Both the position numbers and the translations under genes were made by a program. A stretch of DNA of 61,871 bases from Candidatus Saccharimonadales bacterium (GTDB lineage Bacteria > Patescibacteriota > Saccharimonadia > Saccharimonadales > EFPC-124): contig DATEFB010000017.1 in NCBI GenBank assembly GCA_035280845.1, positions 1 to 61,871 on the forward strand, read 5' to 3'. The notes under the pieces were generated by a model. The model did no database searches. It was not told the DNA's origin and saw only the letters and a list, made by a program, of their open reading frames with translations. Positions within the stretch are counted from its first letter, which is position 1; the number at the start of each line of letters is the position of its first letter. Of this stretch, positions 1-61,737 are shown piece by piece.

Positions 1-29
1 ATCCTCGACCGGTTGCGTCGGTAGGGTCC

Positions 30-60
30 GGGACCGCCGCGCATGACGCGCGGCGGTCCC
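30..60 (-). terminator. GC-rich stem-loop 3' of island gene A
   Basis: GGGACCGCCGCGC-ATGAC-GCGCGGCGGTCCC is a perfect 13-bp stem, 13 nt beyond the stop codon at 74-76. No U-tract. Confidence 0.6.
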
Positions 61-73
61 GGCGAAGCCACGA

Positions 74-841
74 TCAGCCGACGCTGTACTCCTTGTACAG
101 CAGCAGGCTGAGCAGCGTCTTCAGGCACACTTTGCCACCACGCTTCGCGGCGGTGCGGGCTTGGCTGAGCGGCACCACGATGATCTGGACGCGCTCGTCC
201 TCATGGGCGGCTCCGCCGAACTTGTTGTGGAGCTTGCGGATCTGCGCGGATGTAACTCGGGCCCTGACCACGAAGAACTTCACGGTTTCGTCCGAACCAC
301 CCGGGCTCACCAGGAATGGCTCGTCCGAGCCGACGGCGTACTCGCCCAGGTCGATCGGCTCGCCCCAGACAATGATGCCGTCGCCGTCCGTCTCCTCGCC
401 ATCTGGCGCGGCGTTGGCCAACTCCTCGTCGAGTTCGCGCAGCCCGGCCAGCTTGACCTGCTCGCCAGGGTCGACCATCCCCGAGGGGTTGGAGACGACC
501 GCCGACTGTGCGCCAGGCACACGCGGCTGGATCACGAAGACCACGTGCTCTTCGCTACTGCCGTCATCGAGCAGCGCCAGCATGTCCACGGTGGCGCCGC
601 GCAGAGTGCAGACGCCGTCGAGACGACGTTCGCCCTCGTACGCTTCGACCAGCAGGTGGAGCATCTTGATCTCGGGCGTCGGGCGGCCCCAGGCGTGGAC
701 TGCAAGCACCGTCACGGCGCGCAGTTCGATGCTCGGGCCGTCAGTAGCCAGGCGTTCCAGCCACTGCCGGAACACGTGCGATTGCCGCACCTCTTCGGGT
801 GTCGCCTGTACGCCTTCGGCGCAGGTGATCTGTGGATTCAT
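74..841 (-). CDS. NUDIX hydrolase, ADP-ribose pyrophosphatase-like (high-GC island gene A)
   Basis: 255 aa. The Nudix box reads G-MVDPG-E-QVKLAGL-RELDEE (GX5EX7REUXEE). A downstream SPGGSDE..FFVV segment is typical of ADPRase-type Nudix proteins. Third codon positions are very GC-rich. The overlapping ORFs 93..887 and 161..892 are Arg/Ser/Pro-rich wrong-frame artefacts. Confidence 0.65.
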   Translation of the reverse strand: MNPQITCAEGVQATPEEVRQSHVFRQWLERLATDGPSIELRAVTVLAVHAWGRPTPEIKMLHLLVEAYEGERRLDGVCTLRGATVDMLALLDDGSSEEHVVFVIQPRVPGAQSAVVSNPSGMVDPGEQVKLAGLRELDEELANAAPDGEETDGDGIIVWGEPIDLGEYAVGSDEPFLVSPGGSDETVKFFVVRARVTSAQIRKLHNKFGGAAHEDERVQIIVVPLSQARTAAKRGGKVCLKTLLSLLLYKEYSVG

Positions 842-920
842 TGCTGCCTTCCGTTGTATCCGGATGGGACATTGTGCGAATCGATAATATAATGTTTTTT
901 ACCGTATTGGCAAATAATGA

Positions 921-1556
921 CTAGTCTTCGAGAACCTTTTTCAACTTTTCGGGGTGAATAAGAATATTTTGGCGGCCCAGAATCAGCAGGCCGTGCTTCT
1001 CGAACCTGTTTAAGATTTTGCCCGTCGTTTCGCGCGAAAGCCGTATGCTGCTTGCAAGTTCCTGGATCGTCAGCGGGCAATTTATAATAGTGTGGTCTTT
1101 GTTATATGTGCCAAACCGCTCCGCCAAAAACAGCAGTTTAAACGCGATACGCTGGTCTGCGGAATCAATGTTGAGGTTAATAAGGTCGCTGAAAACTGCA
1201 AATGTCTGGTGAAGGACCGCGCGCATAGTGCCCGGCTCGCGTTCGATATAGGCCTTGAACTCATCGAGTGGTTTTATGCGCACCGTCACTTCTGTAAACG
1301 CAAAGAATGCGACATCCATTTGGGTGTTATCGAAGATCCATTTGGCGGGGAACAGCTCATTCACGCCATAAATATGCTGGATACGCTCGTTGCCGTCTTT
1401 TGTGCTTGTGACGATTTTGACCGCCCCTTTGGTAATCCAGAATGCTTTGTCTGGCTGTTCGCCATAGTTAAGAATAAGTGCGCGTCGGGTATATACCCGC
1501 TCTCGCCCGTCAGCAAAAAAGGTGTTTAGTTTGGCAGTTGCTTCCTGGCTATCCAT
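921..1556 (-). CDS. Crp/Fnr family transcriptional regulator
   Basis: 211 aa with an N-terminal cNMP-binding-like beta-roll and a C-terminal HTH (TIQELASSIRLSRETTGKILNRFEKHGLL). Confidence 0.85.
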   Translation of the reverse strand: MDSQEATAKLNTFFADGRERVYTRRALILNYGEQPDKAFWITKGAVKIVTSTKDGNERIQHIYGVNELFPAKWIFDNTQMDVAFFAFTEVTVRIKPLDEFKAYIEREPGTMRAVLHQTFAVFSDLINLNIDSADQRIAFKLLFLAERFGTYNKDHTIINCPLTIQELASSIRLSRETTGKILNRFEKHGLLILGRQNILIHPEKLKKVLED

Positions 1557-1640
1557 AATCCCTCAGAGTTACAGATATTATTATACCGCCACGCACAACC
1601 TATGCGAAAGAAATATGTCACGCCCTATGCACGCGGACCA

Positions 1641-2438
1641 CTATTTTTTAAACAGCAAAGAAAGAATAAGCAGAGCCAGAGCCGAAAGCACAATCGCACC
1701 ACCAGCCGCTATACCGGCGTAGAATGACACAACCAGGCCAGCCATAACAGCAATGGCCGCAACACTGATAGCCAACCCCATTGTTTGTGCGAAGCTGCGG
1801 GCAAATTGACTGGCGGTCACCACGGGCATAACCAGTAGGGCGCTCATGAGCAGGCCGCCGACAATCCGCAAGCTCAACACAACAATAACAGCGGTTGCAG
1901 CCGCGAGCAGGTAATTAAGTAGCCATACTTTGTAGCCAGCAATCCGCGCTCCGTCTTCGTCGAAGGCAATGTGCAGCAGGGCACGGTAGTTAAAGCCAAC
2001 AATAGCCACTATGCCAAGAGCGGCGCCAGCCAGCATAACAATGTCTTGGTCGGTGGTGGTAGTTATGCTACCAAACAGGTAGCTTGTAAAGTCCGTGCTC
2101 GAACCTGGCGCCAGGTTAGCCAGAACAACGGCAAGAGCCAGGCCCGAGCTCATAAGTATTGCCAGGCTAATTTCGCCACTGATTTTGCGGCTCTGGCGCA
2201 GCCATTCCAGAGCAATGGCGCCGCAGATCGCCACGGGAATTGCCAGTGGTACTGGTGCGACTCCAAACAGCAGCCCGGCGCTTACTCCGGCGAGGCTCAT
2301 ATGGGCGAGGCTGTCGGTGATAAGCGAATACCGCCGCGCGACCAGAAAGCTACCCATTATAGGCACAGCTACTGCAACAATAAGCCCGGCAATAAAAGCG
2401 CGGACCATAAAGCCGTAGTCGAATATCTCAAGCATCAT
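1641..2438 (-). CDS. metal (Zn/Mn-type) ABC transporter permease
   Basis: Multi-pass membrane protein of the ZnuB/MntB/TroC type. Start trimmed to MMLEIFDYGF (ATGATG at 2438), which overlaps the upstream ATPase stop by 11 nt. Confidence 0.85.
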   Translation of the reverse strand: MMLEIFDYGFMVRAFIAGLIVAVAVPIMGSFLVARRYSLITDSLAHMSLAGVSAGLLFGVAPVPLAIPVAICGAIALEWLRQSRKISGEISLAILMSSGLALAVVLANLAPGSSTDFTSYLFGSITTTTDQDIVMLAGAALGIVAIVGFNYRALLHIAFDEDGARIAGYKVWLLNYLLAAATAVIVVLSLRIVGGLLMSALLVMPVVTASQFARSFAQTMGLAISVAAIAVMAGLVVSFYAGIAAGGAIVLSALALLILSLLFKK

Positions 2439-13664: not shown

Positions 13665-16600
13665 ATGATCGTAATGGAAACGCAGCCGCCACAAGGCACC
13701 AAACCCAATCTAGAGCACCTAAGGATTGTTGAAGATGTGCTAGGCGTGCCCCTCTTGCCAGAGCAGATTATGGGCATACCTGTGGATGACGGCTCGATCA
13801 GGAGTTTTGCGTACGATTCGGTTGTGCGCGCGCTGGATGCACGGACTGGCAATAGGCCGGGGCGTGGCCTGGCAGAGGGCGCCGCGCACGACCTAAGAGA
13901 AGACGGGCGCTTTCGTCGGCTTGCTGCCGAAGTGCAGGCGGCCAACGATACGCTCGTGAATTGGCACATACCCCCGGCTATGCCTGTCGATGCCGATACG
14001 CTAGAGACTGCGCGTGGCCGTTTTCAGTCCCGGGCTATGCAGGCGGTGGTAGAGCATGCTCAGCGCTCGCCGTCTGCTGTCGGGCCAGATGATAGTCCGT
14101 ACCGCAATGGACTACTCACCATGGCGCCGCCCGGGGCTGGCAAAACCGTCCTGCAGGCGCTGGCCGTCAATTACGCTGGCGTCGGCTTACCAATAAGCGA
14201 ATCTGACCCCCGCCGAAGAACCGGTGTCGGCATTCTAAACAGCCGGCTGCTCATACGTCAGGGGCTCGACGAAGACGAGACGCTGCAGCGTTTCACGAAA
14301 GCCGGTGACCGCGACATGCGCATCGGCGCGTACTTTAATGATCGCCGTGACGGGCATGATGAATACGATTTGTTGCTAACCACCCCGCGCTCATACGAAA
14401 AAGCGGTCAAAAGTGGTGCCATCAATCCCGAAACCACAGTACGTTATTTGTTGGATGAAGCTCACCGGGTTGCACTCGCCCCTGGAATGCAGAAACATAT
14501 GACCGAGTTTGATTCGGGCTTGTATATGTTTACGGCCACACCGGCAATTGCGGGAGGGCGGCGTGATTTGCGCAGACAATTCCCGCATTCCCAATTCGGC
14601 TCGTTACGGGAGTTTGTGGAGGACGGCATTTTAAGCCCCGTCCAATTGTTTACGTACCGTGCAGGCCCAGAGGCAGAGTCGGCGGGACGGCTGGCGGTTG
14701 GCCTGGCCGCGGACTACGTAAAAAGCGGGCGCAAAACCTTGGTCGTGTGTCAGCCTGGTGAGCATATAAAGCAGGCGCGGGATATTGCCCGGCAGCTCAA
14801 TACAATGCATGAACGGGGCGCTATTACACCACATGAACGTTTCGGCTTCGACGGCAACGAGATAGCATGCGCCATCGGCACATACCCAGGCTCTACGCCC
14901 GCAGAAGACATTGCCCGGTTCCGCGCTGGCGAACGACTTATTGCCACGACTGTCGCGACTGGCAACGAGGGCATGAACATTGCCGATCTGGATGCATTAA
15001 TTATTATTGGCCCGCAAGGTGCAACATGGGTGGTTGAGCAGTGGCTTGGCCGGATTCTGCGCCCCAGCGGCCGTTTGGCGGTAGCCTCAGAAATTTTGCC
15101 GCACGACCTGCGCGAGGGCCGGCCGCTCGCCTCTATCTTTGGTCCCTTTGGCTTGCACGACGAGGTAATTACCGCCGGGTATTACATTGGGCCATCACTC
15201 ATAACCGACGAGCTGCCCGAGCCAGGGGCTGGCAATGTACGTCTTACGCCACCAGGTCGTGAAAGGGTGGTGCAAACACCGTCTGAGTTTTCTGAGATTT
15301 CTGGTCGCCCCCTCGACACATCGGAATTTTTAGAACATAGCGCCTCCTCGAGCACCGGCCTGGCATTTTCTGATGGGTATCGCCCGCCTGCCGAGCTCGA
15401 GCCTTCGCTTGTAGCCGGTATTTCTGTGCGTGAAGCAACGATTGCTCCAGCCGATATGCTCAAAGCACCGCCGCCTGAATACGCACCGCTAACAGGGATC
15501 GCGCCTGAAGGCGTAGAGCTTGAATGGTTATATGCAATGATGGACAAGCTCGATGACCCTGCAATCCGCTACATTGGCGTGTGGGAGCCAGATGCCATGG
15601 GTGAGATGCAGTATTTGCGGTATTATTCGCCAGCCGCGCACACGTATTTTGATACCCATCCAATACCCGAGCTTGTTGGCGAGCAGGAATTCTTGGACGA
15701 AGAAATTGCCCGCATGCTTAACGTCTCACGCAAATTTGTGCGGAGCGTGCTAGACGGCAATGGTATCAAACCTCTGAACCGTATTACCAAGTATCACCGC
15801 AACCCCAATTATTACGGCCTCGATACGTATGCGCTGGTCGCGGCTGAAGTGGCCAAGATTCCCTTTGCTGAAGAGTCAGATGTTGCTGTTACGGACCTTG
15901 GCCGCGATATAAGCATTGATTTTATCCGGGGGTACATAAACCGTGGCGAAATAGTCGCGACGTATAAACGCAGGCACCCCACGTGGGGTGTTGTTGGCAC
16001 TGCCCAGCATATTTCGAGCCAGGACGCAGACATGTTGGTGGCCGGTTATAAGTCGCTTGAAGTTGCTGATCTTTCTCAGTTTGTCGGGTTTACCGAGATC
16101 GCTCGGATTGCGGGCGTGGCTATTTCGTCGGTTCTAAATAAGTGGAACGCACTGCCGGAAGCAGAGCGCCCGCCAACGCGGTGGCTGCGTTCTGCGCCAA
16201 AAGTCCGTCCCGCCCAATTTGTTGACAGGGCGTGGGGCGAGGCGTTTGCAGAAGTGCTCAAGCCAGAGAAGGTTTTACCTTGGGAAGCGACGCTCAGCAT
16301 GATTGCGCTGTACTTTGGCAAGCAAAAGCTCAACATGGGCAACATCATTAAGCGTCGGGATACACCCGAACCTGTGAATATCCCCTTGCCAGGCGTGAGC
16401 GAAACAAAAGTGTATCCAATGTCGGTCATTCTTGACTTGCGGCGTGAAGGCATGCCGGCCGCGCCAGACGCACCGCCAATTATTGCGTCACTGGTAGCGC
16501 TTGCACCCGAGGATGTCGCGGATGCTGCCAAGGTAGCGGCGAGCCAGAATATCCAAAAGTATTACATTTCCAAAGAACAGCTAGCCCGGCCTGATGAGAT

Positions 16601-17099
16601 TGGCTATTATGCTGGACGCCGTACGTCCCCGCCACAGTTGCCTTTGCCGTTTGCCGAAAAGCCAAGCGAGCCGGAAGTTGCCGAATCGCTGCCCGAACCT
16701 GATCCATTCCACACACTTGCCAGCGTCCGGCAGCAGTTTGGATGCACGCCGCATGCCTTTACGATCCTCATGCAACGGGCCGAGCTACCTGAGGACGAAA
16801 TCGTAATGGACGGCAATACTGTGATTGGTATTCGCGAGGGCGGGTTTGCGGCGCTCGATAGGCTCGCGGCCCGTATCGCCATTGCCCCGTCCGGTTGGGC
16901 CAGCCTGCCGATGGTTGGGCACGCTGCGGCGCGAAGCACTAAAGATGCTGTCATGGCGGCCCTTGCGCGGATAGAGCACAGGCGTGGATATGCCGCCAGT
17001 GAGGAGGAAGTGCTGCTATGCCGCAATGATTCAGAGGTAGAGCTATACTTCTCAGTGCCCATGAAGCGCGCAATCAGGCACGAGGTGATAGATGGATAG
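13665..17099 (+). CDS. large SF2 (DEAH, ResIII-like) helicase with a roughly 650-aa C-terminal extension containing HTH-like repeats
   Basis: 1144 aa. Motif I APPGAGKT, motif II LLDEAHR, motif III FTATP, motif V TVATGNEGMNI, motif VI QWLGRILR. The C-terminal tail has several excisionase/MerR-like HTH-looking segments. G+C is visibly above backbone but below the islands. Confidence 0.8.
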   Translation: MIVMETQPPQGTKPNLEHLRIVEDVLGVPLLPEQIMGIPVDDGSIRSFAYDSVVRALDARTGNRPGRGLAEGAAHDLREDGRFRRLAAEVQAANDTLVNWHIPPAMPVDADTLETARGRFQSRAMQAVVEHAQRSPSAVGPDDSPYRNGLLTMAPPGAGKTVLQALAVNYAGVGLPISESDPRRRTGVGILNSRLLIRQGLDEDETLQRFTKAGDRDMRIGAYFNDRRDGHDEYDLLLTTPRSYEKAVKSGAINPETTVRYLLDEAHRVALAPGMQKHMTEFDSGLYMFTATPAIAGGRRDLRRQFPHSQFGSLREFVEDGILSPVQLFTYRAGPEAESAGRLAVGLAADYVKSGRKTLVVCQPGEHIKQARDIARQLNTMHERGAITPHERFGFDGNEIACAIGTYPGSTPAEDIARFRAGERLIATTVATGNEGMNIADLDALIIIGPQGATWVVEQWLGRILRPSGRLAVASEILPHDLREGRPLASIFGPFGLHDEVITAGYYIGPSLITDELPEPGAGNVRLTPPGRERVVQTPSEFSEISGRPLDTSEFLEHSASSSTGLAFSDGYRPPAELEPSLVAGISVREATIAPADMLKAPPPEYAPLTGIAPEGVELEWLYAMMDKLDDPAIRYIGVWEPDAMGEMQYLRYYSPAAHTYFDTHPIPELVGEQEFLDEEIARMLNVSRKFVRSVLDGNGIKPLNRITKYHRNPNYYGLDTYALVAAEVAKIPFAEESDVAVTDLGRDISIDFIRGYINRGEIVATYKRRHPTWGVVGTAQHISSQDADMLVAGYKSLEVADLSQFVGFTEIARIAGVAISSVLNKWNALPEAERPPTRWLRSAPKVRPAQFVDRAWGEAFAEVLKPEKVLPWEATLSMIALYFGKQKLNMGNIIKRRDTPEPVNIPLPGVSETKVYPMSVILDLRREGMPAAPDAPPIIASLVALAPEDVADAAKVAASQNIQKYYISKEQLARPDEIGYYAGRRTSPPQLPLPFAEKPSEPEVAESLPEPDPFHTLASVRQQFGCTPHAFTILMQRAELPEDEIVMDGNTVIGIREGGFAALDRLAARIAIAPSGWASLPMVGHAAARSTKDAVMAALARIEHRRGYAASEEEVLLCRNDSEVELYFSVPMKRAIRHEVIDG

Positions 17100-29377: not shown

Positions 29378-29413
29378 CAGCCCTAAGAGGTGAAAATAAG
29401 AGCAATAGCTGTA

Positions 29414-29455
29414 GTTCCGGCCCCAGAAGAGGCTTGCCTCAACTGGGGCCGGAAC
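29414..29455. terminator. GC-rich stem-loop shared by convergent genes (NOX-like and island gene B)
   Basis: GTTCCGGCCCCAG-16 nt-CTGGGGCCGGAAC is a perfect 13-bp stem, 13 nt beyond the stop of gene B. Confidence 0.65.
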
Positions 29456-44522: not shown

Positions 44523-44687
44523 TCAACTGCCGAGGATGTAGTTGATGCCGAGGCATCCCGCGCAGCACAACACAACAAAAAGAAAAACGATGCCGCACGC
44601 GACGGCACCCTTTGCCGCGTAGTTGATGATCGGCTCTCGGGGCTCAAGATCTTCTTGCAGACTGTCGTCTGCGAATTCGCTGTCCAT
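44523..44687 (-). CDS. small tail-anchored Cys-rich membrane protein
   Basis: 54 aa from MDSEFADD. Acidic N-terminus and one C-terminal TM (GIVFLFVVLCCAGCLGI). A terminator lies downstream. The SD is weak. Confidence 0.4.
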   Translation of the reverse strand: MDSEFADDSLQEDLEPREPIINYAAKGAVACGIVFLFVVLCCAGCLGINYILGS

Positions 44688-44854
44688 CTTGGCTGCTCTC
44701 TGTGAAATTGCGGTTGGCCGGGAAAACCGGCAAGCTGACACCTGTCAGTATACTGGCTGGAGCCTCAGATGAGCAATAGCCAGGCGGCAGGTGGCGTCAT
44801 CTCTTAATCCCAGCTACAATAGAGAGGCAATTAACGCCGGAGTGTCAGGGAGCC

Positions 44855-45760: not shown

Positions 45761-46743
45761 TGGCCGCTCACGAACAACACGACGTTGTTATGATTGGCGC
45801 CGGGCCATCGGCGCTCGCAGCGGCTGTGTATACAACCCGTGAAGACATCGATACGGTACTCTACGAAAAGGGCGTTATTGGCGGCCTGGCTGCCATTACA
45901 GATTGGGTAGACAACTACCCTGGTTTTGTAAAAGGTATAAGCGGGCTTGAGCTCGCGCAGGCGCTGGAAGGCCAGGCTGAGCGCTTCGGCGCGAACATCC
46001 GCCTTGGTGAGGTCACGAATATTGTCGACGAAGGCGCCCTCAAACGCCTCGAAACAAGTGATGGCACTATTTGGGCGAAAACAGTCCTTATAGCCACCGG
46101 CTCCGATTATAAAAAGATCGGCGTGCCCGGCGAAAAAGAATATTACGGCCGCGGCGTACACTACTGTGCTACTTGCGACGGCGCATTTTATCGCGACAGA
46201 AAATTAGCTGTCATTGGCGGCGGCAACTCGGCTGTTCAGGAAGCGTTGTTTTTGCTCCGTTTTGCCACTCACATTGATTTGTTGGTCCGCAGCGAGGTGA
46301 AGGCCTCCGAGATTCTGCAGCACGAGCTGGATAAGCGGGTAAAAGAAGGCAAGATCACCATTCATAAAGGTGTCTCGACCACAGAGATCGCCGGCATCGA
46401 CAACATGGTGACAACTGTTAAAGCAACACAAAACGGCAAAGCGGTAGAATACACCGTAGACGGTGTATTTGTGTTTGTCGGTTTACTGCCGAATACTGAT
46501 TTTCTTAAGGCGACTGAGGTCCGGCTGGACGAGCGCGGCTTCATTCTTACTGATCACAGCCTGCAAACAAACATGCCTGGCGTGTTTGCCTCTGGCGATG
46601 TTCGCTCTGGGGCCACCATGCAGATCGCCAGCGCTGTGGGCGAGGGCGCAACGGCGGCGCTCAAGATACGTGAATTCCTCGAGATGCAAGAACGCCACGG
46701 CATTATGCCGCTTGGCGAATTGGCCGAGACACAGGCGTCCTAG
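45760..46743 (+). CDS. trxB: thioredoxin-disulfide reductase
   Basis: GAGPSALAAA FAD motif, CATCDG redox centre, GGGNSAVQEA NADPH motif. Confidence 0.95.
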   Translation: MAAHEQHDVVMIGAGPSALAAAVYTTREDIDTVLYEKGVIGGLAAITDWVDNYPGFVKGISGLELAQALEGQAERFGANIRLGEVTNIVDEGALKRLETSDGTIWAKTVLIATGSDYKKIGVPGEKEYYGRGVHYCATCDGAFYRDRKLAVIGGGNSAVQEALFLLRFATHIDLLVRSEVKASEILQHELDKRVKEGKITIHKGVSTTEIAGIDNMVTTVKATQNGKAVEYTVDGVFVFVGLLPNTDFLKATEVRLDERGFILTDHSLQTNMPGVFASGDVRSGATMQIASAVGEGATAALKIREFLEMQERHGIMPLGELAETQAS

Positions 46744-47463: not shown

Positions 47464-47506
47464 GCCGGTCCGGCAGAACGTGTACTCCCTGTTCTGCCGG
47501 ACCGGC
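47464..47506 (-). terminator. GC-rich stem-loop 3' of island gene C
   Basis: GCCGGTCCGGCAGAAC-11 nt-GTTCTGCCGGACCGGC is a perfect 16-bp stem, 5 nt beyond the stop at 47512-47514. Confidence 0.65.
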
Positions 47507-47511
47507 GGTGG

Positions 47512-47832
47512 TCACGCTGCGGGCTCGGCCTTTGCCGCTGCGTGAGCATCGAGCGCCCTGCGGGTGAGTGTTGCGACGTGGCGCGAGGCCCGTCCTTCAT
47601 CCCTGGCGTCGAAGACCCACCTGTCTCCGGCGCGCACCTGCATGATCATGCGGTAGGTGACGCCGTCTTCTTCCACGATGCCCATGAGGGTCGAGCGGTC
47701 GCTGCCGCGGTATGTCCGGATGCCATCTTGCTCCCGAAGGTAGATGTAGATGACGCCGTCCACGACCGGGCGGTCGGTGGCTCGGATCTCATTCAGCTCG
47801 GCAGTGTCGAGCTGAACTACAATGCTGGTCAT
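47512..47832 (-). CDS. hypothetical small cytoplasmic protein (high-GC island gene C)
   Basis: 106 aa with ordinary composition and GC-rich third positions. The leader CTGGAGGCGAACATGAC is nearly identical to that of gene B. TATAAT lies at 47867-47872 on the minus strand. Confidence 0.55.
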   Translation of the reverse strand: MTSIVVQLDTAELNEIRATDRPVVDGVIYIYLREQDGIRTYRGSDRSTLMGIVEEDGVTYRMIMQVRAGDRWVFDARDEGRASRHVATLTRRALDAHAAAKAEPAA

Positions 47833-48501: not shown

Positions 48502-48521
48502 TAATACGTCTAAAATGAGCG

Positions 48522-48559
48522 CAGGCCGCCAACTCCGGAGTCCCGGGGCTGGCGGCCTG
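48522..48559. terminator. GC-rich stem-loop between convergent ppa and island gene D
   Basis: CAGGCCGCCA-18 nt-TGGCGGCCTG, a 10-bp stem. Confidence 0.55.
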
Positions 48560-48574
48560 TTTGCGCACGAACGG

Positions 48575-48925
48575 TCAGGACTTCGTCCTGAATCCCAGTA
48601 TCACCCCAGGCCCGATGGGTACGACGAGGCTCAGCGGCAAGGGGGTTGGCGCGTCTGGCTCAGTCTTGGGCACGAGCAGCAGGTGGACGCCGACCAGCCG
48701 CTCCAGCGGAGTGGGCGCGAGTGCGTCACGCTCCTCGTCTTCGATGGCGAAACCGACCCCGTCACTTTGGTCGCGCAGCCGGTCGTTGGGATCGACCAGC
48801 TCGGCGGTGTAGAGCGGGTGCTGGCTGACGCTTGAGTGTCGTGAGTCTTTGCCGACGATTTCGTAGACACGATCGCCAATAGTGACCCTGGCAAGATTCT
48901 CGACGTCGAGCTTCAAGGGAATCAA
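48575..48925 (-). CDS. hypothetical small protein (high-GC island gene D)
   Basis: 116 aa as tracked, but the tracked TTG start abuts the SD GAAGGAG. The TTG at 48916 (9-nt spacer) is more likely. TGGTATAGT extended -10 lies at 48956-48964 (minus). Confidence 0.5.
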   Translation of the reverse strand: MIPLKLDVENLARVTIGDRVYEIVGKDSRHSSVSQHPLYTAELVDPNDRLRDQSDGVGFAIEDEERDALAPTPLERLVGVHLLLVPKTEPDAPTPLPLSLVVPIGPGVILGFRTKS

Positions 48926-48984
48926 CTCCTTCGGTAGCTGAATTCGTACAAATTAACTATACCATCAAATAAAAACAAAACAAC

Positions 48985-49022
48985 CTCTTGGCCGACGCGG
49001 AATTCTTTGCGTCGGCCAAGAG
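48985..49022 (-). terminator. GC-rich stem-loop 3' of island gene E
   Basis: CTCTTGGCCGACGC-10 nt-GCGTCGGCCAAGAG is a perfect 14-bp stem, 7 nt beyond the stop. Confidence 0.65.
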
Positions 49023-49029
49023 TGGTCGC

Positions 49030-49434
49030 TTACATATCGGCAGTGATCAGCCGCTCCAGCGCCACGGCGCTCTGGTGGCGTCGCAGCACGTCTTCCGGGC
49101 TGTCGCCGTCGTTGCTGGGGTCGTCGTACCGCGCGGCGAACGTGATGCAGCGGCAGTGCTGGTCGGCGGCGCCGTCAATTCGCACGAGCATGTACTCGGC
49201 CTCGCTGCTGAACAGCACGCTGTCGCCGAAGACTTCGATCGCTTCCCAGTACCTGCTTCCGATCGCCATCATGCCTGCCGAAGCTTCCAGGCTCATGCGG
49301 CCGTTCATGTAGGCCACTGTGCCCAGAAGTACGGCTGCGGCGCAGCGCCGCAGGTCTCCGAGCGTGCCGGTGAAGCGGCATGATGTCTCTGACACGATCC
49401 GAAGGTACGGTTGGACTAACGGTTCCGGGGGCAT
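49030..49434 (-). CDS. hypothetical small cytoplasmic protein (high-GC island gene E)
   Basis: Start trimmed to MPPEPL (ATG at 49434, SD GAGGAG, 4-nt spacer). 134 aa. TGGTATAAT extended -10 lies at 49472-49480 (minus). Confidence 0.55.
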   Translation of the reverse strand: MPPEPLVQPYLRIVSETSCRFTGTLGDLRRCAAAVLLGTVAYMNGRMSLEASAGMMAIGSRYWEAIEVFGDSVLFSSEAEYMLVRIDGAADQHCRCITFAARYDDPSNDGDSPEDVLRRHQSAVALERLITADM

Positions 49435-49568
49435 TACACTCCTCACAACGCAGGTATGTAGCTAGTCCATAATTATACCAGCAAGCATATACGAGGCATT
49501 TGCACTGATTGGCAACCTTTACTACAATAGAAGGCAACAAAGCTAACGCTTAAGAAGTGGGGGTTACG

Positions 49569-53574: not shown

Positions 53575-54237
53575 ATGGACGAGATACACCAGCAGCCCTC
53601 ACCGCCACCTTTGCAGTACAACCGCAGTAAATCGCTGGCGATTGCCGTTGTTGTATCGGCAGTATTTTTACTGGCGGCCGCAGGTATTTGTGTCTGGCTG
53701 CTTATGCGCCCTGCGGGCACGGCGACCATCGAGCAAAAACCGACAGGCGATGGCAGCGAGAGCGTTAAGACGTTGGAATGGACATCACCCGACAGCCTGG
53801 CTGGCACCTATGCCCGTCGCGAACAAAACACCAAGGCGGTTAAGACGACGTATTATTTTGATGCTGTGGCAAGTTGCGGCCTAACGACAAATGTGCAGTC
53901 TATGGTCGCTGGCAAAACGCCCAGGGACGTTGTGCTCGAGGCAGCTCAAGGCGCGCAGGCATACGGCATTGCCACAACTGGTTCGACTGACGCCGACGTG
54001 CATAAGATTAAAGATGCCGACGGCAGCCACACGTATGATTTTAAGTCCGTCCAGCTGGAGCAAACCGTCAACGTCGCCGGTGTGCCGTATAACGCCCAGC
54101 GTACTATCGTGGCCTACAAGCAGTTCGGTACGCTCGTGGCGAGCGTTGGCTACTCGTGCAAGGCTGACTCCTGGGACGCTAAAAAAACCGAGCTGCAAGC
54201 TGCGGCCAATTCATTTATTGTGAAGACGACAAAATAG
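53575..54237 (+). CDS. membrane-anchored hypothetical protein with two ectodomain Cys
   Basis: 220 aa with an N-terminal TM. No family recognised. Backbone composition. Confidence 0.5.
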   Translation: MDEIHQQPSPPPLQYNRSKSLAIAVVVSAVFLLAAAGICVWLLMRPAGTATIEQKPTGDGSESVKTLEWTSPDSLAGTYARREQNTKAVKTTYYFDAVASCGLTTNVQSMVAGKTPRDVVLEAAQGAQAYGIATTGSTDADVHKIKDADGSHTYDFKSVQLEQTVNVAGVPYNAQRTIVAYKQFGTLVASVGYSCKADSWDAKKTELQAAANSFIVKTTK

Positions 54238-54245: not shown

Positions 54246-55157
54246 GTGGGTGTAACAATTCGACAAATCAGAGACAACTGCGTACGGGCACGGCACCTTA
54301 TGCACCGCAGCCGGACGCAGCACTTTGCTGTTGGCGCGTTTAATATTGATAACCAGGAAACTCTCATTGCGGTGTGCCGCGCGGCGCAATCCCAAAAGTC
54401 GCCTGTTCTGGTAGAGGTAAGTGACGGTGAAGTGAAGGCACTTGGCCTCGACAACATCCGTGACATGGTAGATAACTATAAGCGCGAATATGGCGTTGAG
54501 ATGTACGTGAACCTGGACCACAGCCCTACGGTCGAAGACGCCAAACGTGGCATAGACGCTGGCTTTGAATTTATTCACATCGATGTCAGCCAGGCACGGC
54601 ACGATGCCACCGACGAAGAGATCGTTAATGCCACAAAAGAGGTCGTGGAGTACGCAAAAATCACGGGAGCATTGGTAGAAAGCGAGCCTCACTACTTTGG
54701 AGGCAGCTCGAATGTCCACACCGAAGATATAGATTACGATGAAATTAGGAAAACATTCAGCACGCCAGAAGGCGCCAGGCATTTTGTAGATGCAACCGGC
54801 ATCGACACATTTGCGGCGGCGATCGGCAACCTGCACGGTAAGTATCCAGTACCAAAGCAGCTCGATTTAGAGCTGTTGCAGCGTATCCGCGAAGCCATCG
54901 ACTGCCAAATCAGCCTGCACGGCGGCAGCGGCACGCCAGGCCATTACTTTAAAGAAGCTGCCAAGATCGGTGTCAGCAAAATCAACATCAACTCAGATAT
55001 GCGGTTTGTATTCCGTACCACCCTCGAGAAAGTGCTCGCCGACAACCCCGACGAATATGCCGTCGTAAAGCTTATGCCAACAGTCTACGAGGCTGTACAA
55101 AAGATCGTCGAAGAAAAGATCGAAACGTTCGGTTCTGCCGGAAAAGCTATTCTTTAG
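54246..55157 (+). CDS. fba: class II fructose-bisphosphate aldolase
   Basis: FAVGAFN, NLDHS, IHIDVS and SLHGGSG. Confidence 0.9.
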   Translation: MGVTIRQIRDNCVRARHLMHRSRTQHFAVGAFNIDNQETLIAVCRAAQSQKSPVLVEVSDGEVKALGLDNIRDMVDNYKREYGVEMYVNLDHSPTVEDAKRGIDAGFEFIHIDVSQARHDATDEEIVNATKEVVEYAKITGALVESEPHYFGGSSNVHTEDIDYDEIRKTFSTPEGARHFVDATGIDTFAAAIGNLHGKYPVPKQLDLELLQRIREAIDCQISLHGGSGTPGHYFKEAAKIGVSKININSDMRFVFRTTLEKVLADNPDEYAVVKLMPTVYEAVQKIVEEKIETFGSAGKAIL

Positions 55158-55590
55158 GATTGGTGTATGCAAGCCAGGCTTGTTGCAACATGGGCCGGTC
55201 AGCAAACGGCTCTTGTATGTGCAGCTCGTCGCTATCCTGATCGGTGTCCACTACAACCATAGTGCGGAGTACGGCAAGCGCGGTTCGTTCTGGCACGGTC
55301 CATTGTTCGTGCATGGCATCTAAATCGAAAATTGGCGACATGAGCGTTTCGTTGACGCGTCGCATCGCGAACTCGCCCTCGGGGTCATCAGGGTGCGCAC
55401 AGTCTTTTACATATTCGTCGAGTTCGTCTATGCGGAGGCGCATTTGCAGCACCATGCCAAGGCGGTTGGGGATACGGCCGCTGCTCAAAGCCTGGTAAAT
55501 GCCCACCATGGTTTTAAAGGCCTCCTGGGGTGATACCCATGTGCCGTCGAGTAAGCGGGCCTGTTCGGTCGTGCGCTCGTGTTCAATCAC
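55147..55590 (-). CDS. hypothetical cytoplasmic protein (minus-strand orphan inside the carbon-metabolism block)
   Basis: 147 aa, acidic, no family recognised. 11-nt convergent overlap with fba. Confidence 0.5.
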   Translation of the reverse strand: MIEHERTTEQARLLDGTWVSPQEAFKTMVGIYQALSSGRIPNRLGMVLQMRLRIDELDEYVKDCAHPDDPEGEFAMRRVNETLMSPIFDLDAMHEQWTVPERTALAVLRTMVVVDTDQDSDELHIQEPFADRPMLQQAWLAYTNPKE

Positions 55591-58542: not shown

Positions 58543-58571
58543 GGCGGGGGCCCGAGTATAAGACCCCCGCC
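58543..58571 (-). terminator. GC-rich stem-loop 3' of island gene F
   Basis: GGCGGGGG-13 nt-CCCCCGCC, 22 nt beyond the stop at 58594-58596. Confidence 0.5.
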
Positions 58572-58593: not shown

Positions 58594-59157
58594 TCAGCCC
58601 TGGGCGGTTGCCGGGGTGTTCAGGTTATGCTCCTCCATCAGCTTGATGAAGGTCGGGTAGTCGAGCAGCTCCTCGGCAGCGAAGGCCTCGGGGAGCGTGT
58701 CATGCACCACCCCTTCCGGGTTGGTGTAGGACGTGACGACGAAGCCGTTCTTGGCCTCCACCAGTGTGGCCGCGCCGCTCTCGTCGCCGATGTGCACGAC
58801 GATCTCGACCGTCAGCTTGTCGTCCTCGGTGATGTCGAGCACGGTGTCATCTGTGAACGGCCATTCGGCCACGCGCAGGTTCTCGATGAACTCCGCCTCT
58901 TCACGGACTTCGCCGATGGTGCGCGGTTCGTCCAGCTCCGCGCTCAGTGCCTTCGGGCCGTCAATACTGGGGAAGCCGGGAACGATGCCGCTGAGCAGCT
59001 TGGTGAGCTGTGCCACGGCGGCCTGTGGGTCGTCCGTGTCGAGGCTGAGCCGCCGAACGACGGTGGTGCGCCTCAGCTTGCGAAGCAGGGCGACAGCCGA
59101 CGTTGTTGCGCCGCCTACCACGACTGCGGCAAGCAGGAGCTTGGTGCCTTTTCGCAT
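58594..59157 (-). CDS. membrane-anchored hypothetical protein (high-GC array gene F)
   Basis: Start trimmed to MRKGTKLLLAAVVVGG (SD GAGGAAA, 5-nt spacer). 187 aa with an N-terminal TM and an acidic ectodomain. TGGTATATA lies at 59210-59218 (minus). Confidence 0.55.
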   Translation of the reverse strand: MRKGTKLLLAAVVVGGATTSAVALLRKLRRTTVVRRLSLDTDDPQAAVAQLTKLLSGIVPGFPSIDGPKALSAELDEPRTIGEVREEAEFIENLRVAEWPFTDDTVLDITEDDKLTVEIVVHIGDESGAATLVEAKNGFVVTSYTNPEGVVHDTLPEAFAAEELLDYPTFIKLMEEHNLNTPATAQG

Positions 59158-59230
59158 CTGTTTCCTCGATCCATCGGTGGGTGATGCTGCGCACATGACG
59201 CCCATACTTTATATACCAGTATTGCCAATA

Positions 59231-59258
59231 AAACAAATCACCAGCCGAATGACTGGTG
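59231..59258 (-). terminator. intrinsic terminator 3' of array gene G
   Basis: On the minus strand: CACCAG-8 nt-CTGGTG followed by ATTTGTTTTATT. Confidence 0.5.
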
Positions 59259-59335
59259 GCAGTGATTGGATTGGACGGCCGGAGCCCTCGTAATGAGGAC
59301 CCCGACCTAGCGCCCGGTCGTGAAGTGCTGCGTCG

Positions 59336-59707
59336 TCAGCCGGCGACGGCGGGCGTGCGCAGCAGGGTGGAGACGGTGTTCTGACTGGTGATCCGCTGCT
59401 GGGCGGACTCGGGGAGCGGCCTGCGGGTGCCGTCGGCCTCGACGAGGCTCTGGGAGACCCAGCCCTCGCGACCGAAGACGGCTCCCACGTAGCGGTCACC
59501 GTCGCCGGGGATGTCGGCCCCGAGCGCCGGCTTGCGGCCCACGCGGGCCAGGCGGAACTGGGCGCCGTCCGGCTGGATGCCGGCCGCGGCCAGGCTCTTG
59601 CGGGCGTCGTCCATGTGCCCGTCGAGCCGACGCTTGCCGGCACGGACCGCGACGGCACCGACTCCGGCGCCGACGGCGATTCCGAGGAACAGAAGTTTCC
59701 GATTCAC
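59336..59707 (-). CDS. membrane-anchored small protein (high-GC array gene G)
   Basis: 123 aa with a GTG start, SD GGAG (6-nt spacer) and an N-terminal TM (LLFLGIAVGAGVGAVAV). The juxtamembrane motif RKSLAAAGIQPDG resembles RRDLVAAGFTDD in H. TGATATAAT lies at 59773-59781 (minus). Confidence 0.5.
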   Translation of the reverse strand: MNRKLLFLGIAVGAGVGAVAVRAGKRRLDGHMDDARKSLAAAGIQPDGAQFRLARVGRKPALGADIPGDGDRYVGAVFGREGWVSQSLVEADGTRRPLPESAQQRITSQNTVSTLLRTPAVAG

Positions 59708-59819
59708 GTGTTACTCCAGTTTCGTGCGTGCGCAGATGCGCTTTGAACGGTTTGGAAAAGGCGCTGGCGGCCATTATATCAAAGTTTTGTCAAAATCATG
59801 AAATCGCTACAAATGGAGA

Positions 59820-59843
59820 GGCGGGCCCACGATGGGGCCCGCC
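59820..59843 (-). terminator. GC-rich stem-loop 3' of array gene H (GGCGGGCCC type)
   Basis: GGCGGGCCC-6 nt-GGGCCCGCC, with conserved flanks shared with the elements at 60493 and 61179. Confidence 0.6.
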
Positions 59844-59870
59844 GTTGTGCTGTCTCCGAGCTGACTGTGG

Positions 59871-60377
59871 TCAGCCTGTCTGTTCGGGTGCGAAGCAGGG
59901 GAACGACGACCGGTACTGTGCCAGGTAGTCGTACACCTGGGCGCGGGTCGGGTGCGACCGGCCGAAGGGCTGGCGGTCGCGGCCCGGCTGGGTGGCGTCG
60001 ATGCCGTCGGGGTCGTCCCCGATTTGCACCTCGTCGAACTTGTAGAACTTGACCACCTCCACGCCGCCGCTGAACACGGGCTCAGCCAAGGCGGTGGTGC
60101 CGTCGCGCTCCAGTTCGATGGGGCAGTTGCCCACCCTGGTGGTGGCGTCGATCTCCTCGCTGTCGCCCTGTTCGGTCTTCCAGCCCACCTGAAGCGTTGC
60201 GTCGTCGGTGAAGCCGGCGGCCACGAGGTCGCGACGGAACTCGTCCACAGCTTCGGCGCGGTCCCGCTCCTGGCCGGCGTTGTAGGCGCGTACTCCGGCG
60301 ATGATGCCGAACGTAGCGCCTGCCGCCAACCCCAGAACGAGCAGGGTGATCAGTGCGCGTTTGACGGGTTTGGGCAT
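59871..60377 (-). CDS. membrane-anchored two-Cys ectodomain protein, paralog 1 (array gene H)
   Basis: Start trimmed to MPKPVKRALITLLVLGL (SD GGGAG). 168 aa. Clear paralogy to gene I (FRRDLVAAGF, GNCPIELER, YKFDEV, QVYDYLA, PCF). Confidence 0.65.
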   Translation of the reverse strand: MPKPVKRALITLLVLGLAAGATFGIIAGVRAYNAGQERDRAEAVDEFRRDLVAAGFTDDATLQVGWKTEQGDSEEIDATTRVGNCPIELERDGTTALAEPVFSGGVEVVKFYKFDEVQIGDDPDGIDATQPGRDRQPFGRSHPTRAQVYDYLAQYRSSFPCFAPEQTG

Positions 60378-60455
60378 TGCAAACTCCCGAGTGAGTGTGT
60401 GGTGTGAGCAGCACACAAATTATACAACTTTATTTATAAAAGTAAAATGGCTAAC

Positions 60456-60512
60456 AAAAAAACGCCCTAAGGCGCGTCATTTCGGGGGAGGTGCGGGCCC
60501 TTGCGGGCCCGC
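60456..60512 (-). terminator. tandem terminators 3' of array gene I (GCGGGCCC stem-loop plus short hairpin with T7 run)
   Basis: GCGGGCCC-TTGC-GGGCCCGC at 60493-60512. On the minus strand this is followed by CGCC-TTAG-GGCG-TTTTTTT (60456-60474). Confidence 0.6.
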
Positions 60513-60557
60513 GGTGGTGCTGTCCTCCGATGTGCGGGGTGGCGCTGGTGACTTCGG

Positions 60558-61082
60558 TCAGTTCTTCGCGGCGTTGGCGGCGAAGCACCGGGTGAAGTTG
60601 TTGGCGGCGAGGTAGTCGTAGACCTGCTCGCGGGACGGGTTCGGCGTCGTGAACTTGGCGCGGTTGCCCTCGCCGTCCTCCACGTCGACACCGTCGTCGT
60701 CGGAGCCGTCGTTGACCTCGTCGAACTTGTAGGCGCGGACGCCCGGCTTCCCGTTCACGACGGGGGCGCGGTCGTAGGCCGCGTCCTCGGTGCGCTCCAG
60801 CTCCAGGCGGCAGCCGCCCACGGTGGCGACGGCGTCCAGCTCGGACTCGGTCTTGGACGTCTTGCACGTACCGTTCTTGTTCTTCTTGGTGCAGGTCGTC
60901 TCGTCCTTCCACTCGGCGTCGGCGTTGAAGCCGGCGTCGCGGAGGTCGCGCTCGAACTGCGCCTCGGCGGCGTTGCGGCCGCGGAAGTGGTCGTAGATGG
61001 CGTAGCCGATGCCGCCCACGCAGAGCAGGGCGACGACGACGACCACGACCACGACCAGGACGGGGGAACGACGCTGGGACAT
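60558..61082 (-). CDS. membrane-anchored Cys-containing ectodomain protein, paralog 2 (array gene I)
   Basis: 174 aa with SD GAGGAG (6-nt spacer) and a poly-Val TM. Motifs are FERDLRDAGF, GGCRLELER, YKFDEV, QVYDYLA and RCF. Overlapping ORFs 60451..61140 and 60755..61144 are Arg/Pro-rich artefacts. Confidence 0.65.
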   Translation of the reverse strand: MSQRRSPVLVVVVVVVVALLCVGGIGYAIYDHFRGRNAAEAQFERDLRDAGFNADAEWKDETTCTKKNKNGTCKTSKTESELDAVATVGGCRLELERTEDAAYDRAPVVNGKPGVRAYKFDEVNDGSDDDGVDVEDGEGNRAKFTTPNPSREQVYDYLAANNFTRCFAANAAKN

Positions 61083-61178
61083 GATGCACTCCTCGAGTGA
61101 TCGGAATGGGTACAGCGTGCATATAATACAATGTTAACAAACAAAATGCAATAGTTTTATGTCATCAAAAATGGAAGA

Positions 61179-61196
61179 GCGGGCCCGAAGGCCCGC
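61179..61196 (-). terminator. GC-rich stem-loop 3' of array gene J (GCGGGCC type)
   Basis: GCGGGCC-CGAA-GGCCCGC, 22 nt beyond the stop. On the minus strand it is followed by TCTTCCATTTTTGAT. Confidence 0.6.
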
Positions 61197-61218
61197 AGTG
61201 TTATCTCCCGTCTGTTGG

Positions 61219-61701
61219 TTACGGCTTGCATGGAGAGCCGTTTTTCTTGAGGTGCGCCTGTACCTCGGCGGGTGATGGATTGGCGGTGTTGAGGGCATAT
61301 TTCACCATCTTGCCACCTTGTTTCACCTCATCGAGCTTGTACTTCACCGCTGTGCCCGAAGGCATGGCTGGCGCAACTTGCTGCGCCGGCGAGAGCACAC
61401 CGACGATCCACTTTATGCCGACGGTGCATGACCCTACCTCACCGGTCGCTTCGACCTTGAACTTGCCACCTTCGACGGCCGTTGTTGCCTGGAAACCCTC
61501 GTAGCCGCGTGCCTTGAGTGCATTCAGCAGGGCGCCCTTGTATGCCTCGCCTCCGGCAGCAGGTGCTTCGGTAGGCGCGCTAGAAGGGGGCGGGACAGAG
61601 GTGGCGCAATACGCCAGCGCGAACGACAAAAGGCCGAGCGCCAGGAAGGCCAACAGCCCCGTTCCCAACAGGCTCAAAAGATGTCTGAGCTGCTTCTTCA
61701 T
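61219..61701 (-). CDS. membrane-anchored two-Cys ectodomain protein, paralog 3, lower G+C (array gene J)
   Basis: Start trimmed to MKKQLRHLL (SD GAAGGG, 6-nt spacer). 160 aa with a TM and a Pro/Ser/Ala linker. The motifs GSCTVGIKW, VKYKLDEV, PSPAEVQAHL and SPCK align with H and I. Confidence 0.6.
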   Translation of the reverse strand: MKKQLRHLLSLLGTGLLAFLALGLLSFALAYCATSVPPPSSAPTEAPAAGGEAYKGALLNALKARGYEGFQATTAVEGGKFKVEATGEVGSCTVGIKWIVGVLSPAQQVAPAMPSGTAVKYKLDEVKQGGKMVKYALNTANPSPAEVQAHLKKNGSPCKP

Positions 61702-61737
61702 GTGCAACCCTTCTTTGTGCCAGGGATAACGCTAGCT

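Follow-up and report, generated by a model that had tools for sequence, protein, structure and literature searches.

Atypical composition is the standard shortcut for calling recent gene transfer and for guessing at donors, especially in host-dependent ultra-small bacteria, where acquisition from the host is an appealing idea. For compositionally atypical genes that have been transferred, Lawrence and Ochman are said to have provided a model of amelioration, and the ORFans of bacteria are, as Daubin and Ochman reportedly found, typically A+T-rich. Here, we analyse ten G+C-rich genes, named A to J, in a stretch of 61,871 nucleotides (hereafter, the window) that covers positions 1 to 61,871 of contig DATEFB010000017.1 from a Candidatus Saccharimonadales bacterium (assembly GCA_035280845.1). 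An earlier reading made from the letters alone (the sequence-only reading) had taken these genes for serial imports from a high-GC donor, captured one at a time and then wired to resident promoters. Our analysis points elsewhere: the ten genes are, on balance, probably resident and fast-evolving accessory cassettes of one soil Saccharibacteria clade, with a stable G+C richness, and not recent imports. The alien composition, the gain within one clade, and the promoters of local type stand from the earlier proposal; the recency of the capture does not, and the high-GC donor was not found.

Ten GC-rich genes in six blocks

Outside the six blocks that hold these genes, the backbone of the window has 52.5% G+C; each block has 63.7-66.8%, a step of ~12-14 points. 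The sequence-only reading had found the same six blocks and its counts over single lines (29/60, 34/60, and 44/60) were exact, and its figure of roughly 70% for the blocks was too high. The G+C content at third codon positions (GC3) is 0.70-0.97 in the ten genes, which is 3.6 to 11.6 standard deviations above the backbone (0.577 +/- 0.034, with a maximum of 0.64, in 48 backbone genes). In every block, the coding pattern, with the lowest G+C at second codon positions (GC2) and the highest GC3, appears in one frame only and always on the minus strand, which confirms the ten minus-strand open reading frames (ORFs) reported earlier. Gene A lies at 74-841 (255 amino acids, aa; GC3 0.83), B at 29469-30101 (210 aa), C at 47512-47832 (106 aa), D at 48575-48916 (113 aa; GC3 0.76), E at 49030-49434 (134 aa), F at 58594-59157 (187 aa), G at 59336-59707 (123 aa), H at 59871-60377 (168 aa), I at 60558-61082 (174 aa), and J at 61219-61701 (160 aa), all on the minus strand. 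Five of the starts (D 48916, E 49434, F 59157, H 60377, and J 61701) were shifted using gene-caller records and the N-termini of orthologues. A scan between genes for further high-GC3 ORFs of >=35 aa found none in the window. Long antisense ORFs also run across every island, e.g., at 93-887, 29434-30123, and 58627-59184 (all on the plus strand). Their codon-position pattern mirrors that of the minus-strand genes (GC2 or first-position G+C highest), so we regard them as by-products of G+C richness and not as genes.

Judged by its sequence, the backbone is that of Saccharibacteria, as had been suspected from the letters alone. RarA and Gap have their best matches, at 70-80% identity, in metagenome-assembled genomes (MAGs) of Saccharibacteria. 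The gene content fits as well: a sortase, two-component systems, a Znu-type ABC transporter, a LOG-like gene, and an operon for the pentose-phosphate pathway and glycolysis. The identities of the plus-strand neighbours ppa, gap, the LOG-like gene, and uvrB were confirmed. The minus strand carries all ten block genes, compared with roughly 15 of the 54 backbone genes, and for all six independent units to lie there P is about 5e-4. The GC skew is positive over the whole window, so the plus strand is presumably the leading one, which would place the ten genes on the lagging strand.

These blocks might be artefacts, either of a chimeric metagenome assembly, which had been a concern from the outset, or of non-coding DNA so rich in GC that ORFs arise in it by chance. 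The contig was assembled from short reads with MEGAHIT, and GC-rich DNA yields long spurious ORFs on both strands. However, the same block junctions were found again in at least eight independent assemblies from three sources (ENA, JGI, and Logan), which excludes a chimera; the ENA contig ERZ27257114:k141_333798 is the reverse complement of the window. The periodicity over codon positions, ratios of nonsynonymous to synonymous divergence (dN/dS) of 0.28-0.74, thus below 1, and the confident structural model of the gene I protein indicate real genes, and conserved promoters argue in the same direction (see below). The chance that the blocks are an artefact is practically nil.

Orthologues at the same sites in relatives

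Protein searches carry no taxonomy of their own, so we read the genomic contexts of the homologues. Six of the seven contexts have a Saccharibacteria backbone; the seventh, L194, is without lineage assignment. The slot is the same as in the window in five of them (L082, L193, L196, L197, and L198/L199), and an orthologue in the same position was identified for seven of the ten genes, namely B, C, E, F, G, I, and J. In L082, from farmland soil, the order is rarA, B, NOX, and cupredoxin; B is 63% identical to its counterpart in the window, in flanks that have a GC3 of about 0.5 and encode proteins at 89% (RarA), 80% (NOX), and 71% (cupredoxin) identity. L196 has the order gap, E, ppa, C, and glpQ, with D absent from its ppa-gap slot; here, E is 55% and C 39-41% identical, beside Gap, Ppa, and GlpQ at 95%, 92%, and 82%. 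In L193, the order is uvrB, J, and I (J 52%, I 58%, and UvrB 91% identical). L197 holds F (43-46% identical) and a fragment of G (53%), and the adjoining LOG-like gene is 95.5% identical. In L198 and L199 (LOG 98%, UvrB 92% identical), the slot contains only a member of the H/I family (GC3 0.70) and a 120-aa anchored protein (GC3 0.88). A JGI contig of a close strain has the same array J-I-H-G-F-LOG.

The GC3 of the orthologues is high in all seven genes and near-identical to that of the window in four of them (window/orthologue: B 0.83/0.86, C 0.78/0.77, E 0.81/0.73, F 0.84/0.91, G 0.90/0.95, I 0.97/0.94, and J 0.70/0.70). Hence, same-site orthologues of the same composition, which the sequence-only reading had itself named as evidence against capture, exist within the clade for B, C, E, F, G, I, and J. 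The two remaining contexts hold members of the B family. That of L195 is 26% identical and has a GC3 of 0.41 on a contig of 42% G+C, where its neighbour, a TypA fragment, is 88% identical to Saccharibacteria MAGs. That of L194 is 33% identical (GC3 0.84) and adjoins an ORF with a GC3 of 0.98 and a normal gene with a GC3 of 0.58.

Distant Saccharibacteria, with Gap at 66-80% identity, keep the order g45760 - glpQ - ppa - gap - rpiB - rpe - tkt - fba - pfkB - g56650 - LOG - uvrB. They have neither the ten proteins nor any high-GC3 ORFs, and in one of them ppa and gap are directly adjacent. The absence of the ten genes from distant relatives with the same synteny indicates that they were gained inside one clade. 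Closer relatives (g56650 72-82% identical, locus G+C 0.51-0.555) have no detectable homologues of the ten proteins; their own orphan ORFs in the same slots have GC3 values of 0.75-0.88, and the minus strand bears 12-13 of the ~16. Ten of these high-GC3 orphan ORFs were scanned and none was above the Pfam threshold.

The intervals ppa-gap, LOG-uvrB, tktC-fba, and g56650-LOG have variable content between conserved flanks, i.e., they form a core-flanked hot spot for accessory genes. In the LOG-uvrB slot, L166, L168, and L169 have proteins with a mutual identity of only 22-32%, on backbones that are 89-95% identical. The ppa-gap spacer, at 48502-49556 in the window, ranges from 140 nt (genes adjacent) to about 2950 nt among L085-L100 and L177-L190, with content that is unrelated between lineages. 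The tktC-fba slot of the window holds an orphan at 53575-54237 (plus strand; GC3 0.62) that is 41% identical to its counterpart in L180, and the same slot of L168 (5451-6648) holds three plus-strand ORFs with a GC3 of 0.79-0.84. With both normal- and high-GC3 orphans in the tktC-fba slot, two compositional classes of orphans use the same slots.

Composition at silent sites

Between the window lineage and L082, L193, or L196, 50-66% of the fourfold-degenerate sites of the backbone differ. The synonymous divergence (dS) of the backbone is 1.3 to above 3, i.e., saturated, with a nonsynonymous divergence (dN) of 0.04-0.23, and about three quarters of its fourfold differences are between strong (G or C) and weak (A or T) bases. 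This saturation is what tells against the recency of the capture claimed earlier. The cassettes have a dN of 0.32-0.83, and their proteins evolve 3-8 times faster than those of their neighbours.

In gene I, 19 of the 42 conserved fourfold sites differ from L193; 16 of the differences are G<->C and 3 are strong to weak, and the G+C content at fourfold sites (GC4) is 0.95 in the window and 0.88 in L193. We compared this with a passive model, in which a Hasegawa-Kishino-Yano (HKY) process with the equilibrium frequencies of the backbone starts from an ancestor of 100% G+C. At the divergence of gene I, GC4 should be about 0.83 under this model, and G<->C changes should make up 0.22-0.37 of the differences (binomial P 1e-5 to 1e-7). 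Since I and its orthologue share position and promoter, their divergence took place inside Saccharibacteria genomes. The differences are nearly all G<->C and the silent sites of the backbone are saturated, so the composition of gene I appears to be maintained and not decaying. A/T-ending codons are being excluded in this gene. The same tendency is seen in a pair of orphans downstream of uvrB, beyond the end of the window (L084 6664-7260 and L193 920-1444, both on the plus strand), which are 36% identical with UvrB at 91%; 71% of their fourfold sites differ, and their GC4 is 0.77 and 0.87. The phenomenon of GC-rich orphans continues outside the window.

One rival explanation dispenses with any maintaining force. 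The cassettes would descend from an ancient capture, from an unsampled source of very high G+C and before the clade diversified, and would since have ameliorated passively, with occasional exchange of cassettes between Saccharibacteria lineages through transformation and recombination in the conserved flanks. Decay from an initial GC4 of about 100% accommodates B, E, and J, with 0.4-0.6 substitutions per site in each lineage, and the spread of GC3 from 0.70 to 0.97 is what acquisitions of differing age would give. Also in its favour are a cassette dS below flank dS for B (0.67), I (0.47), and C (0.77), slot content that differs between close relatives, and the divergent slot proteins of L166, L168, and L169, which look as if alleles had been replaced from a pool. 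According to a recent survey, the transfers detected in Patescibacteria mostly have other Patescibacteria as partners (PMC12455944), which is compatible with within-phylum exchange. However, I and its orthologue share promoter and position and yet differ at 45% of fourfold sites, nearly all of these differences being G<->C. No high-GC Saccharibacterium or other source was seen, the top locus G+C among relatives being 0.555, and the B-family member of the Saccharibacterium of 42% G+C (L195) has a low GC3 to match. The tandem paralogues also differ in GC3 (H 0.87, I 0.97, and J 0.70), whereas the orthologue pairs of I and J match, which is more easily explained by gene-specific equilibria than by a common clock. 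We consider an ancient capture followed by passive decay rather unlikely, although it is to be taken seriously.

The bias affects all codon families, which shift to G/C endings even for Lys, Glu, and Gln. The largest fall is in T at third positions (0.07 in the cassettes vs 0.24 in the backbone), TTC accounts for 98% vs 40% and ATC for 87% vs 29% of the respective codons, and the encoded proteins have more Arg, Ala, Gly, Pro, and Val and less Lys, Ile, and Asn. A shift of all codon families and of amino-acid use looks like the work of a nucleotide-level force and not of matching to tRNAs. At third positions, C exceeds G on the coding strand, whichever DNA strand bears the gene; because this excess tracks the coding strand, the bias follows the gene and not the replication strand.

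These data bear on translational selection, in which G/C-ending (especially C-ending) codons would be optimal and the cassettes very highly expressed, e.g., as abundant surface proteins. The constancy of GC3 among orthologues (near-same in four of the seven genes, high in all seven) is in line with it, and the excess of C over G exaggerates a preference already present in the backbone. Nevertheless, the shift extends to every codon family, including Lys, Glu, and Gln, and to amino-acid use; the rapid change of the proteins is the opposite of what is usual in highly expressed genes; and the glycolytic genes gap, fba, and ppa have an ordinary GC3. Translational selection is thus an improbable cause.

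Two further causes were considered and rejected. A conflict of orientation with replication cannot be the sole cause: backbone genes on the minus strand are normal, the high-GC3 ORFs of L168 lie on the plus strand, and the excess of C is on the coding strand. Fast evolution does not by itself lead to a high GC3, as the fast-evolving orphan at 53575-54237 has a GC3 of 0.62.

Search for a donor

A full phmmer search with B, C, D, E, F, H, and I against 1.84 billion representative proteins (E <= 1e-3) returned 40 proteins in total, among them ~15 for B, 7 for C, 5 for E, 4 for F, and 6 for I; D and H recovered only themselves. Among 5.8 billion clustered proteins, gene B has two relatives. With tblastn, the ten proteins had no match in 50,697 phage records and, in 72,556 plasmids, only a 27% identical Nudix match on a Spirosoma plasmid. 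No relative of A or of the B family came up in pattern scans of 185,579 GTDB species genomes, and synteny anchored on rarA was too diverged for use in the GTDB representatives. No actinobacterial or other high-GC source was seen in these searches, which are not exhaustive for very remote homology. The donor assumed by the sequence-only reading thus appeared neither in the protein, phage, plasmid, and GTDB searches nor in the genomic contexts, six of seven of which are Saccharibacteria. We found no report in the literature of a class of GC-rich orphan genes in Saccharibacteria.

How, then, does the original proposal fare, namely that the genes were captured recently and one by one from the actinobacterial host or another high-GC donor and then wired to local promoters? 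In its favour are the GC3 of 0.70-0.97 against 0.58 with an actinobacterium-like choice of codons, the sharp block boundaries, and the absence of the genes from distant Saccharibacteria of the same synteny. Transfer of this kind may also occur in the clade: beside glpQ, L196 has a gene with a match to DUF397, a family that we take to be typical of actinomycetes. On the other side, the homologues amount to a handful of metagenomic proteins, in contexts that are Saccharibacteria in six of seven cases. The same-site orthologues of seven of the ten genes span a synonymous divergence that is saturated, J and I have orthologous promoters in different lineages, and the pattern of gene I is incompatible with decay. 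Moreover, H and I were duplicated in place, no mobility genes were found, and one member of the B family, that of L195, has a GC3 of 0.41 in a Saccharibacterium of 42% G+C. For B, C, E, F, G, I, and J, these findings largely refute recent capture; for the set as a whole, we regard it as highly improbable.

The DUF397 gene of L196 (2933-3214, minus strand) encodes 93 aa, has 62% G+C (0.62), and adjoins glpQ. It may be a genuine actinobacterial acquisition in the clade. It has no counterpart in the window, where glpQ and trxB abut at 46740-46743.

Promoters, hairpins, and mobility features

Each of the ten genes appears to have its own sigma-70-like promoter element, of the local type. Extended -10-like motifs lie on the minus strand at 48964 upstream of D (TGGTATAGT, 48956-48964), at 49480 upstream of E (TGGTATAAT, 49472-49480), at 59218 upstream of F (TGGTATATA, 59210-59218), and at 59781 upstream of G (TGATATAAT, 59773-59781), and those of the backbone lie on the plus strand at 18875, 31370, 38758, and 61775; all had been placed correctly before. 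Upstream of H is a promoter-like TTTACT-16-TATAAT (60419-60446, minus strand; 10 of 12 positions match). J has a predicted promoter, TTGACA-16-TAGAAT (61738-61765, minus strand; 11 of 12 positions match), which is divergent from uvrB.

Hairpins with perfect stems of 8-16 bp lie downstream of all ten genes, with z from -2.65 to -6.84. On the minus strand, they follow A (28-62; 15-bp perfect stem, z -4.2, no T-run), B (29413-29456; 14-bp stem, z -6.8), C (47464-47506; 16-bp stem, z -6.8), D (48522-48559; z -4.5, ~20 nt past the stop of ppa on the opposite strand), E (48986-49021; 13-bp stem, z -6.1, with a T-run), F (58543-58571; 11-bp stem, z -3.6), H (59820-59843), and J (61179-61196, kept in L193). 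After G (59239-59307) and I (60462-60512) there are two hairpins, with a T-run behind the second. The private stem-loops noticed earlier are therefore present after every gene, and the remark that most do without a U-tract holds for only ~6 of the 10, as a close T-run stands behind the hairpin in four (E, G, I, and J).

Between the window and L193, the control region of J is kept in its -35, -10, 5' untranslated region, and Shine-Dalgarno elements, and the putative terminator of J and the promoter of I are likewise conserved. These conserved regions indicate that the cassettes were inherited together with them. The region after H (59761-59850, with the terminator and the start of the G promoter) resembles that after J (61109-61200, with the terminator and the I promoter), with the common pattern GCGGGCC...GGGCCCGC(C)TCTyCCATTTkT. 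This resemblance suggests that terminator-promoter junctions may have been duplicated along with the genes.

As the sequence-only reading had noted, features of mobility are lacking. The window has no tRNA genes and no Rfam families, no attC-type consensus (RYYYAAC...GTTRRRY) was found near any of the six blocks, direct repeats flanking them were not seen, and no integrase, transposase, or tyrosine recombinase is among the Pfam-annotated genes of the backbone.

Predicted proteins

In Pfam and NCBIfam, none of the ten proteins had a match except for a weak one of gene A to Nudix, the only family that had been recognised from the letters alone. The match is marginal (Pfam NUDIX, E 2.6e-4, 21.5 bits vs a cut-off of 21.1). 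A Nudix box, G-x5-E-x7-R-E-L-x-E-E, is readable at residues 121-139 and has all but the last two positions of the consensus GX5EX7REUXEEXGU. Weak matches in Pfam, NCBIfam, and PDB are to NudF, NudK, NudE, and NUDT5, those in PDB being ADP-ribose pyrophosphatases, so that the nearest relatives are ADP-ribose/ADP-sugar pyrophosphatases. The protein cluster of A has a single member. From these matches, gene A probably encodes an ADP-sugar-type Nudix hydrolase.

B is predicted to be all-alpha and matches no known family; C, D, and E are orphans. We infer that B to E are small soluble proteins. A structural model of B from three sequences was unusable (AlphaFold, pLDDT 46). In each of F, G, H, I, and J, a single hydrophobic segment near the N-terminus, with basic residues ahead of it, predicts a membrane anchor; these proteins would cross the membrane once and have a domain that faces outward. 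H and I form a tandem pair of paralogues (BLASTP E 1e-15 to 1e-22) in direct repeats with a period of 687 nt, J is a distant third member of their family, and two cysteines are invariant across the family. For gene I, AlphaFold gave a confident model from an alignment of nine sequences (pLDDT 88, pTM 0.76), with a predicted sheet made up of long beta hairpins and a helix at either end, the N-terminal one being long. With this model, Foldseek found nothing below E 0.07 in PDB and BFVD. The fast change of the F-J proteins suggests an interface at the cell surface with the host or with phages. Roles of the ten genes in host mimicry or immunity are pure conjecture.

The LOG-uvrB slot proteins of L166, L168, L169, and L180 have the same architecture as H, I, and J: a membrane anchor, a 'VGxC' motif, and a C-terminal cysteine. 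We do not claim homology between them, given an hhalign probability of 30% over 12 columns and no significant hmmsearch match. A prophage remnant or defence island was also considered and rejected, with none of the ten proteins matched in PHROGs or PADLOC and no tblastn match among the phage records.

Other observations in the window and its relatives

Some other genes deserve mention. At 13665-17099 (plus strand), an ORF of 1144 aa has no Pfam match at E 1e-4 but a readable Walker-A-like motif (PPGAGKT) and a DEAH motif; G+C is locally high (0.625) over the initial 600 nt, and the GC3 of the whole ORF is ordinary (0.58). The rarA ORF at 30171-31469 (minus strand) has 432 open codons vs 382 in the public gene call, and its relatives align only from residue ~37-46 on, so the 50 N-terminal codons are probably not translated. 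An orphan between fba and pfkB (55147-55590, minus strand), called at 120-147 aa, occurs also in the JGI strain and has a GC3 of 0.64, which equals the backbone maximum. The GH5 and FKBP genes have a small conserved membrane ORF between them, at 44523-44741 (minus strand) and at 5310-5504 of L196, with 72 and 64 aa, respectively, 33% identity, and a GC3 of 0.63 in the window and 0.74 in L196. Two public records labelled as other taxa, L088 (DATLCF010000002.1, 557 kb, Nevskiaceae) and L003 (Chloroflexi), have Saccharibacteria-type synteny with Gap or RarA at 73-80% identity; they are probably misbinned or mislabelled.

A scenario for the cassettes

These results suggest a scenario in which each cassette would be a self-contained unit: a single short ORF with a sigma-70-type promoter of the local kind and a strong hairpin to itself. 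The cassettes would have been gained after the clade split from relatives without them and would occupy a few slots (rarA/NOX, glpQ/ppa, ppa/gap, and LOG/uvrB), nearly always head-on to housekeeping genes and on the presumed lagging strand. At these fixed inter-operon slots, they would be inherited along with promoters and putative terminators of their own, undergo duplication on the spot (as H and I did), be gained and lost among close relatives, and perhaps be swapped between lineages. Some force disfavouring A/T at silent sites would keep their G+C high. Candidate forces are selection on nucleotide or codon composition and a repair or conversion process with a local GC bias; that weak constraint on the proteins goes together with a strong bias at silent sites speaks rather for a biased neutral process.

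A stronger version of this scenario is plausible, if somewhat short of probable: one small genome would have two classes of codon usage, with the cassettes actively held at a GC3 of 0.7-0.97 vs 0.58 by a gene-targeted, GC-favouring process across saturating synonymous divergence. If so, composition would mark a functional or mechanistic class of genes and not a foreign origin. That the codon usage is host-like because the genes or their transcripts act inside a high-GC host is without support here and scarcely credible.

Several points weigh against regarding the cassettes as residents of stable composition. Horizontal transfer is classically recognised by atypical composition and codon usage, and since the cassettes are both compositionally atypical and absent outside the clade, they may be of ancient foreign origin, which composition cannot show. 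The relatives are represented by short metagenomic contigs and have no phylogeny. No orthologue is recorded for A, D, or H, and the island of A is cut by the end of the contig. Maintenance is shown mainly by one pair, gene I, with support from the one pair outside the window, and B, E, and J fit passive decay from a near-pure G/C ancestor if their coalescence is at about half the depth of the flanks. The orientation common to the ten genes is not the cause of their composition, as the three high-GC3 ORFs of L168 are co-directional with the operon. We know of no bacterial mechanism that holds single genes 25-40 GC3 points above their neighbours, and selection on silent sites seems at odds with the weak constraint on the proteins.

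Comparison with known systems

At the level of a single gene, A is like the ADP-ribose/ADP-sugar Nudix hydrolases in its Nudix box and weak family matches, and differs from them in matches that are barely at threshold and in an extra N-terminal region of ~90 residues. The arrays are like integron cassettes in being made of short single-ORF units, several of them co-oriented in a row with an inverted repeat after each. In contrast to integrons, they have no IntI, attI, or attC consensus, their hairpins are unrelated perfect GC stems, and the units, each with a promoter-like element, are spread across six loci. An integron cassette array was rejected on these grounds: no IntI among the annotated genes, no attC near the islands, and own promoter-like elements in place of a common Pc.

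The cassettes are also like core-flanked plasticity slots, in that the same intervals (ppa-gap, LOG-uvrB, tktC-fba, and g56650-LOG) hold different genes by lineage. Here, however, each unit consists of one small gene with a promoter and putative terminator to itself and is no multi-gene mobile element, and the units have a strong orientation bias and a common extreme codon usage. GC-biased gene conversion is a likeness of another kind: it is non-adaptive, raises GC3 locally, and shifts amino-acid use, and it would fit weak protein constraint with a strong silent bias in a phylum that is naturally competent. The effect seen here is, however, one of 25-40 GC3 points confined to single genes, whereas the recombination-associated effect in bacteria that Lassalle et al. 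reportedly described in 2015 is of a few points of GC3 across gene classes.

There is a further likeness to ORFan islets of atypical composition, with which the cassettes have in common sharp boundaries, short orphan proteins, fast evolution, a patchy distribution, and insertion between core genes. They differ in being G+C-rich where ORFans are usually A+T-rich, in lacking mobility genes, and in having promoters that are local and orthologous. Their composition is shared by orthologues across saturated divergence, and gene I is not ameliorating. The compositional shortcut fails here, as the GC-rich genes are endemic to an epibiont clade and inherited at fixed sites, which calls for caution with composition-based calls of transfer in MAGs. 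At least one cassette (I) retains its composition through heavy turnover of silent sites. If such maintenance is general, it would point to an unrecognised force on single genes in a reduced genome, and composition alone would flag candidate surface or accessory proteins for the dealings of Saccharibacteria with hosts or phages. Relative to known islets of atypical composition, what is new is the persistence of a GC-rich composition.

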